From sequence record OM632672.1: a stretch of DNA of 48,949 bases; one strand, 5' to 3'. Positions 2,641-7,117 of the stretch are shown piece by piece. The position numbers and the translations under genes are program-made. The notes under the pieces were generated by a model. The model ran no database searches. It saw only the letters and a list, made by a program, of their open reading frames with translations, and was not told the origin of the DNA. Positions within the stretch are counted from its first letter, which is position 1. Every line of letters starts with the position of its first letter. This DNA comes from Escherichia phage BEU51.

Positions 2641-2659
2641 GTTGCTTCGCAACTTATGG
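2641..2659 (+). promoter_or_regulatory. candidate vRNAP-type hairpin promoter (5-bp stem, 3-nt loop)
   Basis: GTTGC-TTC-GCAAC followed by TTATGG; the template-strand loop would be GAA; lies about 50 nt upstream of the 2705 start; same architecture as the hairpins at 3108 and 7097. Confidence 0.35.
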
Positions 2660-2704
2660 ACATGTTGTCCGTATCTTATCAATCAACTATTGGAGGCTAA
2701 TACT

Positions 2705-3031
2705 ATGACTACTCAGGCTAACGTTCGTATGACTGTAGGAACTCTGTTGGGTACTGTTAATGAAGCAGCAACTACTGTAGCTGATACATTCGGTACTGCT
2801 ACTAAAGCAGTAGGTATGCTTAATCGTTATGTAACTAAACAAGCAGATAAACAAATCATTCGTGACAAATTAGAAATGCATGAGTTTACCAATAAACTTA
2901 TTGAAGAAACTGCAATGCAAGAAGCTATTCGTCAGAAACAAATCTTAGACTTCTGCAAAGATGAACAAAACAAAGAATTGTTCTCTAATGCCTATGACCG
3001 TCTTAGCAAAATCTTAGCAGACTCTAAATAA
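2705..3031 (+). CDS. hypothetical early protein (108 aa)
   Basis: ATG at 2705 preceded by GGAGG; the longer track ORF from 2642 lacks an RBS; no recognisable motif. Confidence 0.6.
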   Translation: MTTQANVRMTVGTLLGTVNEAATTVADTFGTATKAVGMLNRYVTKQADKQIIRDKLEMHEFTNKLIEETAMQEAIRQKQILDFCKDEQNKELFSNAYDRLSKILADSK

Positions 3032-3043
3032 TAACAAACAAAT

Positions 3044-3068
3044 GGAGGCTCCTCGGAGTCTCCTTTTA
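3044..3068 (+). terminator. rho-independent terminator
   Basis: GGAGGCTC-CTCG-GAGTCTCC hairpin (8 bp, one G-T pair) followed by TTTT. Confidence 0.55.
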
Positions 3069-3107
3069 CATAGAACCGATAGTTCAATAACTATCTACTT
3101 TAAAGAT

Positions 3108-3128
3108 AAGAAGCTCCGCTTCTTTTGG
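3108..3128 (+). promoter_or_regulatory. candidate vRNAP-type hairpin promoter
   Basis: AAGAAGC-TCC-GCTTCTT then TTTTGG; the template-strand loop is GGA; the hairpin plus downstream TTTTGGATG matches the N4 early promoter hairpin as I recall it (GAAGC-GGA-GCTTC). Confidence 0.55.
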
Positions 3129-3235
3129 ATGAAGTAATGCATCCAATCCTGTATGAAATCTTAACCTTTTGTCTGGGATTACTTACCGACAAAGTAGTCT
3201 CAACTAATCAAAATCAACTATCTGGAGAGTACAAA

Positions 3236-3622
3236 ATGGCTATCACTACTTTTGCTAAAACCTTTGGTCAGGCTTCTACTAAAACTGAATCCAACAATGG
3301 TTCTCGCCCGAAAGCTCAGTTCTGGATTAACGTTGGCTATGTAGCTAATGAAGGCACTGAAGATGAACGTTTCATCTCTCTGCCTACTGGTATTCCACTG
3401 GATACTCAGGAGCATCTGCCAACCAATTCCTCTAACGAAGACTTCCGTGCAATGCGTTGTGCACAGAACGATTTGTTAGACCAACTGATGGAATTTGCTA
3501 AGACTCTGGAACCAGGTCAGGAAGGAGTTATCTCACTGCAAGTTCAACTTCGTCGAGTTAAAGAAGAAGCTCCTGCTATCTCAGCAAGTGAGAATAAATA
3601 TGCTCGTAAACTGACTTTCTAA
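3236..3622 (+). CDS. hypothetical early protein (128 aa)
   Basis: ATG at 3236 with GGAGAG 7 nt upstream; the track ORF from 3125 starts at TTG and would overlap the hairpin at 3108-3124. Confidence 0.6.
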
Positions 3623-3629
3623 TCTCTAT

Positions 3630-3657
3630 AGGACTACCTTCGGGTAGTCCTTTTTAA
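3630..3657 (+). terminator. rho-independent terminator
   Basis: AGGACTACC-TTCG-GGTAGTCCT hairpin followed by TTTTT. Confidence 0.7.
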
Positions 3658-3764
3658 TTTTAACTATCTAAATACTAAAGTAGAGATTTTGACCCTTTTC
3701 GACGAAGGGATACTAAAAAGTAATGGATAGTTTGAGCAGATGTTTTAGAAGAAGGAGTATACAG

Positions 3765-4079
3765 ATGCATCCTCTTATAAAACGATTCCTGATGGACTAT
3801 CAGGAGTGGTTAGATAATGGAGCCAGTGAACCTCATTACCTGTTTGATAGGGGTAGTGGACTGTGTGTTCAACTAGGCAAGTATCTTAGAAGACAGCCAA
3901 TCAGTGAAGAAACAGTAGATGCTCTGTGTAAGAGCTTTACTCATTTACTTCCTGATAATGATACAAATCTACCATTCAATGTAGATGTTCTCGACTACAT
4001 GATGGAGTGTTCTGATGGAAGATGTCATCTGAACCAAAGTCGAATTAATTGGATTAAGAGTCAGTTGGAGAGTAAGTAA
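3765..4079 (+). CDS. hypothetical protein (104 aa)
   Basis: ATG at 3765 with GAAGGAG 7 nt upstream; Cys/His-containing small protein. Confidence 0.55.
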   Translation: MHPLIKRFLMDYQEWLDNGASEPHYLFDRGSGLCVQLGKYLRRQPISEETVDALCKSFTHLLPDNDTNLPFNVDVLDYMMECSDGRCHLNQSRINWIKSQLESK

Positions 4080-4082
4080 ATT

Positions 4083-5070: not shown

Positions 5071-5072
5071 AT

Positions 5073-5106
5073 AGGAGGGGGCTACTAAGCCCTCTTCTTA
5101 TTTTTA
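5073..5106 (+). terminator. rho-independent terminator
   Basis: AGGAGGGGGCT-ACTA-AGCCCTCTTCT hairpin (11 bp, two G-T pairs) followed by TATTTTTAT. Confidence 0.6.
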
Positions 5107-5143
5107 TCGTGGTTATTAAGCAACTATCTTAGAGGAAGGAATA

Positions 5144-5359
5144 ATGGAACAGTTAAACTACGGTTATAAGATTAAACGCAATCAAGTAAGAGGTTCTTGG
5201 TTATTTCTCGTTTATGGCAAGCCAATCTATGAATTACATCGTGGAGAGAAATCCAAGACCTATTACGTAACTCATATTGCTACAGGAAAGACTCCTGCAT
5301 GTGCAGGATTGCTTCGTGATGCAATTATGAAAGCATGTATGTTAGAAGGACTTCTATGA
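5144..5359 (+). CDS. hypothetical protein (71 aa)
   Basis: ATG at 5144 preceded by GAGGAAGGA. Confidence 0.5.
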   Translation: MEQLNYGYKIKRNQVRGSWLFLVYGKPIYELHRGEKSKTYYVTHIATGKTPACAGLLRDAIMKACMLEGLL

Positions 5360-5670
5360 ACCAAATCATTGCTATCCCACAGCATAAAGCTCGTATTGCT
5401 GACAGGAATATTCGTATTCATTATCCAATGCCTTTGAGCAATCCATTCCAGAAAAATGAGAGAACCACGGATGAAGATATAGCAGCAGCTTATGAGGCAT
5501 ATCTTCGTAACCGTTTGGTAAGCGGTGACAAGCTCATTACGGCTGAAATGGAACGAATTGCTAAATTCATTATGGATGCTACTGACAAACCAGTTGGCCT
5601 CATTGGTAATGAACTGGAAGTGAATGTAATCCGTAAGATTATTATGGAGGCTCTTAATGGGAATCAGTGA
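5356..5670 (+). CDS. hypothetical protein (104 aa)
   Basis: ATG at 5356 overlaps the upstream stop (ATGA); same frame as track ORF 5335..5670. Confidence 0.5.
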   Translation: MNQIIAIPQHKARIADRNIRIHYPMPLSNPFQKNERTTDEDIAAAYEAYLRNRLVSGDKLITAEMERIAKFIMDATDKPVGLIGNELEVNVIRKIIMEALNGNQ

Positions 5671-5833
5671 ATCCCAGGCTATGGCTATTAAACAGTTAGC
5701 CTTCAACTGCCTTAGTGCTATGAAGGCATTTAATGAAGCAAAAACTTTCCCTGACCAGAATAAAGCTCGTATTCGACTTTATCAGTCTAAGAAAGATTTT
5801 GAAGAATATCTGGAAAGTATTACGGTGAAATAA
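5657..5833 (+). CDS. hypothetical small protein (58 aa, below track cutoff)
   Basis: ATG at 5657 to TAA at 5831-5833, stop overlapping the next ATG; fills an otherwise unexplained 160-nt gap. Confidence 0.4.
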   Translation: MGISESQAMAIKQLAFNCLSAMKAFNEAKTFPDQNKARIRLYQSKKDFEEYLESITVK

Positions 5834-6153
5834 TGAAAACAATATTAATTGTTCATGATGCTGATTTTAATGATGTTGATAAAATGATGCGTAATATTGA
5901 TTATGTAGCTCAGACAACTCCAGCATTTAAAGAAGAATTTACTCTATATTGTGATGCTAATTCACCACTAGTTCCCATTCTGAAAGAAGCCAGTTTACCC
6001 TTCTCTACAGATAATTTCCCTGAAGAACCTGATTATGTAATTTCATTTATTTATGACTTACATGATGGCTCAGAACCAAGTGAATTGGCTATGAGTCAAT
6101 GGAAATCCAGAAGACCTGTATATGCATTTCAGGTAGTTAAATCAAGGAGTTAA
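5833..6153 (+). CDS. hypothetical acidic protein (106 aa)
   Basis: ORF from track. Confidence 0.55.
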   Translation: MKTILIVHDADFNDVDKMMRNIDYVAQTTPAFKEEFTLYCDANSPLVPILKEASLPFSTDNFPEEPDYVISFIYDLHDGSEPSELAMSQWKSRRPVYAFQVVKSRS

Positions 6154-6155
6154 CT

Positions 6156-6524
6156 ATGTTAGGTGATAACACTAATGCTCTGTTTGGGGTGTCAGCCAGA
6201 CCTATTATCATTGTTAATAAACATCATGGTAAAAAGGGTGAATATATTGGGCGTGGTTCTCCTCTGGGTAATCCATTCGTTATTGGTAAAGATGGAACCA
6301 GAGAAGAAGTAATTGCCAAATATAAAGTATGGCTACAAGAACAGATTGATAAAGGTAATCCAGTTGTACTGGATGAATTAAATCGTCTTGGTAATAAAGC
6401 CATTGATGAAAAAGGATTAGCTTTACAATGCTTCTGTTATCCAAAACCTTGTCATGGCGAGGTTATTAAAGAGAAGTTAGTAAAAGCTATGTATAACTAC
6501 TTTGTGGAAAATCCTAATGGGTAA
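6156..6524 (+). CDS. DUF4326-like protein
   Basis: GNPF and CFCYPKPCHGEV match the G-N-P-F / C.C.P..CHG signature I associate with DUF4326. Confidence 0.5.
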   Translation: MLGDNTNALFGVSARPIIIVNKHHGKKGEYIGRGSPLGNPFVIGKDGTREEVIAKYKVWLQEQIDKGNPVVLDELNRLGNKAIDEKGLALQCFCYPKPCHGEVIKEKLVKAMYNYFVENPNG

Positions 6525-6702
6525 ACAATGCAAATGTGGTAAAGGCTATATATCCCAATGGGATGGTAAGTGTGGTCATTGTAGAACCAAGAAAGAACAA
6601 CGTGACCATGAATATGCACTTCAAGAAATGATTGTACCTGTTGAGAATTTAGGTATGGCTCCACTTGAGGCTTACAAATATATAAGGAGATTATGCAAAT
6701 GA
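6517..6702 (+). CDS. small Cys-rich zinc-ribbon-like protein
   Basis: CKCGKG...CGHC gives two CxxC-type pairs; ATG at 6517 with GGAAAA upstream; the track ORF starts at a TTG at 6502. Confidence 0.45.
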   Translation: MGKQCKCGKGYISQWDGKCGHCRTKKEQRDHEYALQEMIVPVENLGMAPLEAYKYIRRLCK

Positions 6703-7079
6703 AAGAAGTATTCGTATTTGGTTCTAACCTAGCTGGTGTACATGGTGCTGGTGCTGCAAAGACAGCATATAAGAAACATGGAGCCAGATGGGGTAAAGGG
6801 CATGGTCATTATGGTGACAGCTATGCCATTCCCACTAAAGATACCAATATCAAAACGATGACTATTGAAGACATTCGTACATTTGTAAAAGCCTTCATTG
6901 TCTATGCTGCTAATCATCCAGAACTTAACTTTAAAGTTACTCGTGTAGGTTGTGGATTAGCTGGTATTGATGATTCTGTTATGGCCTCTATGTTTGAAAA
7001 TGCCACTGGTAACTGTTCCTTTGACTTAGCATGGAAAAGTTACTTAGGGGATGATTTCAACTACTGGGGAACGTTCTAG
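6699..7079 (+). CDS. hypothetical protein with Gly-rich N-terminal motif
   Basis: AGGAGA sits 8 nt before the ATG at 6699 and only 2 nt before 6693; motif VFVFGSNLAGVHGAGAAK, family not identified. Confidence 0.55.
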   Translation: MKEVFVFGSNLAGVHGAGAAKTAYKKHGARWGKGHGHYGDSYAIPTKDTNIKTMTIEDIRTFVKAFIVYAANHPELNFKVTRVGCGLAGIDDSVMASMFENATGNCSFDLAWKSYLGDDFNYWGTF

Positions 7080-7096
7080 CTCATACGTTAGGTAAT

Positions 7097-7117
7097 AAGC
7101 TGCTCCGCAGCTTTTGG
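7097..7117 (+). promoter_or_regulatory. candidate vRNAP-type hairpin promoter upstream of RNAP II genes
   Basis: AAGCTGC-TCC-GCAGCTT then TTTTGG; same stem/3-nt TCC loop/TTTTGG arrangement as 3108-3128. Confidence 0.5.

Follow-up and report, generated by a model that had tools for sequence, protein, structure and literature searches.

Three hairpin elements of Escherichia phage BEU51 as the probable N4-type early promoters P1, P2, and P3

Coliphage N4 provides, in its early promoters, a textbook example of DNA hairpins recognized by a polymerase. The hairpin promoters of the N4 virion RNA polymerase (vRNAP) go back to Haynes & Rothman-Denes 1985 and Glucksmann et al. 1992 (as cited in PMC4496689 and PMC3715699); on the template strand the enzyme reads -11A/G, -10G, -8G, and +1C, and early initiation is rifampicin-resistant and requires both gyrase and E. 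coli SSB (PMC4496689). Oligonucleotides of P1 and P2 serve as vRNAP promoters in cryo-EM experiments (PMC13434306, PMC13492108), and gp15/gp16 are transcribed by vRNAP (PMC13434306). The promoters of T7-type phages share with these a polymerase of the T7-like family, its specificity loop and intercalating hairpin, and a span of about -17 to +1, but they are recognized as double-stranded sequence, whereas N4 vRNAP shows no activity on duplex DNA and works only on an extruded template-strand hairpin, with gyrase and SSB also required (PMC4496689). Within the Schitoviridae, putative hairpin early promoters have been listed for Klebsiella phage KP8 (P1-P4; PMC6950046) and for the Pseudomonas phages LUZ7, LIT1, and PEV2 (PMC3715699). 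The sites of other N4-like phages share stems of 4-7 bp, a 3-nt loop, the core GC-TCC-GC, and an A/T-rich spacer followed by GG, and likewise lie 5' of the first early genes and the RNAPII genes; they differ in stem sequence, via compensatory changes, and some phages are predicted to have four sites. More distant genera (Zuri, and Axy22 at most of its sites) depart from the enterobacterial core pattern.

The DNA analyzed here, called the window throughout, is the whole 48,949-nucleotide stretch of Escherichia phage BEU51 (OM632672.1). Its nucleotide identity is 98.3% with N4 and 100% with the Escherichia phage BEU isolates, and N4 position 1 corresponds to window position 2553. The rIIA coding sequence sits, relocated, at the start of the window and looks like an artefact. 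The DNA polymerase gene is interrupted by an inserted HNH endonuclease gene, around which Rfam found no group I intron. The features that concern us are as follows.

2641..2659 (-17 to +2), plus strand: predicted early promoter P1, GTTGC-TTC-GCAAC-TTATGG; stem 2641-2645/2649-2653 (5 bp), loop 2646-2648, spacer TTAT 2654-2657; template loop 5'-GAA-3', -11A at 2647, predicted +1 at 2658
2705-3031, plus strand: gp1 homologue, 108 aa (N4 annotation gp1 154-480; ORF list), first gene from P1
3044..3067, plus strand: terminator-like hairpin and T run, GGAGGCTCCTCGGAGTCTCC TTTT, after gp1 and just 5' of P2
3108..3128, plus strand: predicted early promoter P2, core GAAGC-TCC-GCTTC-TTTTGG at 3110-3128; 7-bp stem 3108-3114/3118-3124, loop 3115-3117, spacer TTTT 3123-3126; template loop GGA, -11G at 3116, -8 at 3119, predicted +1 at 3127
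3137-3622, plus strand: gp2 homologue, RNAPII cofactor (N4 annotation gp2 586-1071), from P2
3630..3656, plus strand: terminator-like hairpin and T run, after gp2
7097..7117, plus strand: predicted early promoter P3, core GCTGC-TCC-GCAGC-TTTTGG at 7099-7117; 7-bp stem 7097-7103/7107-7113, loop 7104-7106, spacer TTTT 7112-7115; template loop GGA, -11G at 7105, predicted +1 at 7116, 38 nt 5' of the gp15 ATG
7154..9225, plus strand: RNAPII genes gp15 (7154-7963) and gp16 (to 9225) (N4 annotation), from P3
9231-9256: terminator-like hairpin downstream of gp16
35264..45766, minus strand: virion RNA polymerase gene gp50, 3500 aa from Met7 of a 3506-codon ORF

For gp2, the start listed is the one annotated in N4; the ribosome-binding site of an in-frame ATG at 3236 is much better. 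The gp15 product is 100% identical to N4 RNAP1, and the gp16 homologue matches Pfam RNA_pol.

The original prediction, made from the letters alone, had placed three hairpins on the plus strand at 2641-2659, 3110-3128, and 7099-7117, and both direct reading and an independent scan agree. Its 5-bp stems are correct for P1, but those of P2 and P3 extend to 7 bp; similarly, the template loop triplets were right but not their order (GGA, GGA, GAA), which for the elements as listed is GAA, GGA, GGA. All three elements lie between ORFs and face plus-strand genes, the last of them 5' of the RNAPII genes, as had been proposed; the ORF list and the N4 annotation both place them so. Transcription from each would run rightward, and the hairpin recognized would be that of the template (minus) strand, whose minimum-free-energy DNA folds are exactly the P1, P2, and P3 hairpins. 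The folding z-scores are modest (-1.6 to -2.8), as expected for hairpins of 13-17 nt. On the plus strand, positions -12 to -8 read T-(T/C)-C-G-C and +1 is G at every site, i.e., template-strand -12A, a purine at -11, -10G, -9C, -8G, and +1C. The four-base A/T spacer at -4 to -1 (TTAT in P1, TTTT in P2 and P3) is followed by GG in each case, and +1 falls eight nucleotides downstream of -8 at all three.

The elements are base-for-base equal to N4 ~90-108, 559-577, and 4548-4566, with the -11 positions at 96, 565, and 4554 of the 70,153-bp N4 genome. The published P1 hairpin, promoter oligonucleotide GTTGCGAAGCAAC, is the exact reverse complement of window 2641-2653 (PMC13434306), and for P2 (-17 to +2) window 3110-3128 is the exact reverse complement of the published oligonucleotide CCAAAAGAAGCGGAGCTTC (PMC13492108); the suggestion that this second element matches an N4 promoter was correct. 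The third element is taken as P3 because the whole N4 genome has only this one consensus site besides P1 and P2, because its position is upstream of gp15/gp16, and because those genes are known to be transcribed by vRNAP. The start sites of this isolate are transferred from N4 by the same identity. Likeness to N4 P1-P3 extends to the sequence of each element and its flanks, left-end position, the gp1, gp2, and gp15/16 context, the recognition determinants, and the cognate polymerase. Although this is a different isolate, with ~98% identity overall, there is no difference inside the elements; single substitutions occur a few bases outside the hairpins, e.g., T for G at window 3106, 5' of P2. 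We give a probability of about 0.96 to the interpretation of the three elements as P1, P2, and P3, the early promoters of an N4-type phage, read by vRNAP. Judged by sequence, they are characterized N4 promoters that were already known, and not merely the candidates that they were first taken for.

The mechanism is established for N4 in the literature; for this phage we infer it from sequence identity. A single-subunit RNA polymerase packaged in the virion, vRNAP, would be injected with the DNA. Host gyrase would supercoil the left end of the incoming genome, allowing each inverted repeat to extrude as a cruciform, of which E. coli SSB would melt the non-template hairpin and leave the template-strand hairpin intact. 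It is the latter, with a stem of 5-7 bp and a 3-nt loop 5'-G(A/G)A-3', that vRNAP is expected to bind, with the -11 purine stacked against W129 and with -10G, -9C, and -8G read by the specificity loop; the A/T bases at -4 to -1 would act as a spacer. Initiation with GTP opposite the template C at 2658, 3127, and 7116 would then yield transcripts of gp1 from P1, gp2 from P2, and the RNAPII subunits gp15/gp16 from P3, the products of which should together constitute the machinery for middle-gene transcription. The vRNAP encoded in the window matches the PDB chains of N4 vRNAP end to end, and the promoter-contact residues K114, R119, W129, K267/K268, K849/K850, D901, and R904 (mini-vRNAP numbering) are all present. 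With N4 identity and all recognition determinants in place, the proposal of vRNAP early promoters is supported.

The same architecture is found in PhAPEC7, Moo19, Mimir124, ECBP1, BaqKoxi, K57alpha1.2, and Axy22, 5' of the gp1, gp2, and RNAP1 homologues; at the K57alpha1.2 locus, the annotation misfits the matched sequence, and the sequence alone was used. The region matches only in part in relatives carrying the syntenic sites, at a nucleotide identity of only ~77-85%. Neither the GCTCCGC heptamer (which reads GCTTCGC in P1 of both the window and N4) nor the GG at +1/+2 varies across the set. Pairing in the stem amounts to 97.4%, and three of its seven pairs show compensatory changes (19 cells); none of 500 shuffles matched this pairing, and controls in which the pairing was slid by a few columns were at most 49% paired. 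Loss of the hairpins from relatives that keep the downstream genes, which would have spoken against promoters, is the opposite of what was seen: the sites are kept, with compensatory changes.

Read on the plus strand, the elements each consist of a GC-containing hairpin and then TTTT or TTAT, and two of the three occur just 3' of coding regions; they might accordingly be small intrinsic terminators, or RNA stem-loops that end upstream transcription. However, stronger canonical terminator-like hairpins are already present at 3044-3063, 3630-3651, and 9231-9256, and a terminator function leaves unexplained the invariance across relatives of GCTYCGC and of GG 8-9 nt after -8. It is also contradicted by published N4 work, P1 and P2 are in experimental use as vRNAP promoters, and we consider it very unlikely. 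Slightly less probable again is that the cruciforms act chiefly in some other DNA transaction (replication priming, packaging, or end recognition, for example) and only secondarily as promoters. P1 does lie inside the annotated direct terminal repeat of Mimir124 (1-403) and Axy22 (1-404), and vRNAP transcription has been proposed to help pull the genome into the cell (review PMC4496689), but P2 and P3 are internal rather than terminal; moreover, each site is at a typical leader distance 5' of an early gene, and the data require no extra role.

Chance inverted repeats in an A+T-rich, hairpin-rich phage genome are scarcely credible as a source of all three elements, even though perfect 5-bp inverted repeats with loop sizes of 3-11 are generally over-represented in the window (for loop 3, 96 versus ~59 expected). 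The composite motif (perfect 5-bp stem, 3-nt loop, then TT[AT]TGG) was observed three times over both strands of the 48.9-kb window, against a mean of 0.07 in 200 dinucleotide-preserving shuffles, none of which reached three. Furthermore, all three sites are intergenic with a common strand and orientation, and they are conserved in synteny among relatives with compensatory stem changes. The bare heptamer GCTYCGC is itself unenriched (three observed versus 3.4 expected), and its three copies are precisely P1, P2, and P3.

No fourth promoter was found in the window: a relaxed scan (a stem of 4 bp or more, and a coding strand with a pyrimidine at -11 and C at both -10 and -8) gave only weak 4-5-bp intragenic hits, none combining a GC-closed core, an A/T spacer, and GG, and the sequences in the window matching GCTYCGC-N7-GG with one mismatch contained no hairpin. 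The rest of the N4 genome likewise yielded no further consensus site. An excess of 5-bp/3-nt hairpins (192 versus 115) was considered as a hidden promoter family and rejected, as it reflects the general excess of inverted repeats and its members share no loop or core. PMC13492108 (2026) mentions "four early promoters (P1-P4)", whereas its own introduction says three; neither the window nor the N4 genome yielded a sequence counterpart of "P4".

P1 is ~90 nt from the genome end and would fall within the stretch repeated directly at the termini. The transcripts predicted from P1 and P2 open with a conserved hairpin of 5 bp that starts at +1 (2658-2670 and 3127-3144; stems GGACA/TGTCC and GGATG/CATCC), for which RNA folding z-scores were not significant. 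When IMG/VR was scanned with the P1 upstream box as anchor, most matches were due to chance; at the 10 genuine sites (six in the loci already compared and four in IMG/VR contigs), the leader was identical in all 10. It is possible, though we think it unlikely, that the terminal repeat provides an outward-firing fourth copy of P1 at the right end of virion DNA and that the +1 hairpins are functional. Such a right-end copy might be the "P4" that the 2026 paper mentions in passing, and the +1 hairpins could make the RNA more stable or contribute to holding the initiation region in single-stranded form. No description of either was found in the N4 literature searched.

We regard the result as a positive control, not a discovery: a reading of raw sequence recovers the unusual, structure-dependent promoters of N4. 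The picture of N4 transcription is unchanged by it, and what it yields is base-exact annotation of promoters and start sites for this isolate and for its unannotated BEU relatives.

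Direct reading and an independent scan both placed the three hairpin elements, originally predicted from sequence alone to be early promoters for the virion-packaged RNA polymerase (vRNAP) of coliphage N4, where that prediction had put them:

2641-2659, plus strand, P1 element, GTTGC-TTC-GCAAC-TTATGG
3110-3128, plus strand, P2 element, GAAGC-TCC-GCTTC-TTTTGG
7099-7117, plus strand, P3 element, GCTGC-TCC-GCAGC-TTTTGG

The P2 and P3 stems reach 7 bp (3108-3124 and 7097-7113), and the template-strand loops read, in order, GAA, GGA, and GGA; the original prediction, by a small slip, gave GGA, GGA, and GAA. 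A perfect 5-bp hairpin with a 3-nt loop followed by TT[AT]TGG occurs three times on the two strands of the 48.9-kb window, against an expectation of 0.07, and none of 200 dinucleotide-preserving shuffles gave three. The heptamer GCTYCGC was found by scanning the window to be confined to these elements. Over the whole window, perfect 5-bp inverted repeats with loop sizes of 3-11 are in general 1.5-1.9-fold in excess of dinucleotide shuffles, and those at loop 0 are in deficit; the excess is diffuse and lies mainly inside genes, and its members share no motif across the window.

By megablast, the region is 98.3% identical to Escherichia phage N4 and 100% identical to isolates BEU5, BEU13, BEU14, and BEU44, which carry no annotation. 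N4 position 1 corresponds to window position 2553, and none of the three elements, flanks included, differs from N4, in which the -11 positions of P1, P2, and P3 are 96, 565, and 4554; by these positions they precede gp1, gp2, and the RNAPII genes gp15/gp16, respectively. The gp15 homologue matches N4 RNAP1 at 100% identity, and Pfam RNA_pol is present in the gp16 homologue. The cognate polymerase is also encoded:

35264-45766, minus strand, vRNAP gene, 3500 residues, matching the PDB N4 vRNAP chains end to end

Its promoter-contact residues, as named in a review (PMC4496689) and in mini-vRNAP numbering (K114, R119, W129, K267/K268, K849/K850, D901, and R904), are all at the expected positions.

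Conservation among the N4 promoters spans -17 to +1, with a GC-rich heptamer centered at -11 between inverted repeats; vRNAP recognizes the template-strand bases -11A/G, -10G, -8G, and +1C, -10G forms a sheared pair with -12A, and a ruler of four A residues sets +1 eight nucleotides downstream of -8 (PMC4496689). With the loop center numbered -11, positions -12 to -8 read T-(T/C)-C-G-C on the plus strand of all three elements, and in each there follow three bases of the stem, a spacer of four A/T bases, and then GG at +1/+2; every determinant on the published list is thus present, and transcription is predicted to start at 2658, 3127, and 7116. For P1, the oligonucleotide used in cryo-EM (...AAAAGTTGCGAAGCAAC, PMC13434306) includes the exact reverse complement of 2641-2653, and a P2 oligonucleotide (...CCAAAAGAAGCGGAGCTTC..., PMC13492108) that of 3110-3128. 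The 7099 element lies 38 nt upstream of gp15, the entire N4 genome has no consensus site besides it, P1, and P2, and gp15/gp16 are transcribed by vRNAP (PMC13434306); judged on these grounds, it is P3. The introduction of one 2026 paper (PMC13492108) gives three early promoters, its discussion "four early promoters (P1-P4)"; by comparison with four N4 loci, the 70,153-bp N4 record has three consensus sites only.

Hairpins of the form GCTCCGC-N7-GG are present in PhAPEC7, Moo19, Mimir124, ECBP1, and K57alpha1.2, from other Enquatrovirinae genera, and in the related Klebsiella phage BaqKoxi, where they are syntenic and upstream of the gp1, gp2, and RNAP1 homologues; a P1-like site is kept in Achromobacter phage Axy22. 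The loss of hairpins from relatives retaining the downstream genes, which had been named as grounds for refutation, was therefore not what we found. In an alignment of 21 sites, neither the heptamer nor the GG at +1/+2 ever changes, while variation at the outer positions of the stem is compensated:

P1 class stems, GTTGC/GCAAC versus CATGC/GCATG
P2 class stems, GAAGC versus GACGC versus GATGC
P3 class stems, GCTGC versus GCAGC

Stem pairing holds in 97.4% of cells of that alignment, with both-side changes at three of seven pairs (19 cells), a level of pairing and compensation matched by none of 500 shuffles; sliding the pairing by a few columns, as a control, left at most 49% paired. In published accounts, Klebsiella phage KP8 has four putative promoters of this kind and phage LUZ7 has three.

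That the elements are merely chance inverted repeats is excluded by the shuffle statistics together with this conservation. Hairpins followed by T-rich sequence might instead be terminators, but P1 sits at the genome end, stronger terminator-like hairpins lie close by, the loop and +1 bases are invariant, and P1 and P2 have been used directly as promoters in experiments, and this reading too is excluded. Identity to N4, the recognition determinants, and the P1 and P2 oligonucleotide matches instead support the hairpins as vRNAP early promoters.

Window 1-2526, the very start of the stretch, is an rIIA-like CDS (N4 15460-17985) that is absent from its native site between gp32 and rIIB, having been cut exactly at the CDS boundaries (18009/18010), so rIIB starts with GTG at 18010 rather than ATG. 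GenBank records BEU42 and BEU44 have the same gap, and the relocation looks like a processing, assembly, or re-ordering artefact, not biology; sequence upstream of 2527 is thus not the natural context of P1. The final 26 nt of the N4 right end occupy window 2527-2552 and run straight into N4 position 1; this join (2527-2553) is a circular or concatemer junction in which the terminal repeat has collapsed. P1 (N4 ~90-108) falls within the N4 terminal repeat of 390-440 bp (PMC3715699), and in Mimir124 and Axy22 too it is inside the annotated repeat (1-403 and 1-404, respectively); two copies are therefore expected in virion DNA, and the second should face outward at the right end.

Elsewhere, the DNA polymerase gene is interrupted by a ~700-bp insertion relative to N4 (24684-25385), which leaves it as two ORFs, 22768-24819 and 25299-26129; the insertion's own ORF (24722-25336) has the domains HNH_3 and NUMOD4, as is typical of homing endonucleases, and no Rfam match to a group I intron was obtained there. 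Four tRNA genes (Asn, Ser, Thr, and Pro) lie between the gp47 and gp48 homologues (33193-33871), and megablast gave no N4 match for a ~140-bp block (20623-20762).

The predicted P1 and P2 transcripts each carry a 5-bp hairpin at +1 (GGACA-TGT-TGTCC, 2658-2670, and GGATG-N8-CATCC, 3127-3144), conserved in Enquatrovirinae relatives, and in Axy22 one change may be compensatory; their folding z-scores were not significant and gave no statistical support. The gp2 start annotated in N4 (ATG 3137) is only 10 nt downstream of the P2 +1, within the +1 hairpin of that transcript, and lacks a Shine-Dalgarno sequence. Another in-frame ATG, at 3236, directly follows a GGAG-type ribosome-binding site (GGAGAG), and the true gp2 may be of 128 rather than 161 amino acids. 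Each predicted transcription unit has a terminator-like hairpin:

P1-gp1, 3044-3063
P2-gp2, 3630-3651
P3-gp15-gp16, 9231-9256

By identity to N4, for which these steps are known, gyrase-driven supercoiling would extrude each inverted repeat, E. coli SSB would remove the non-template hairpin, and vRNAP would bind the template hairpin and initiate with GTP at both +1 and +2. The three elements are the already known N4 promoters P1-P3, unchanged in a close relative.
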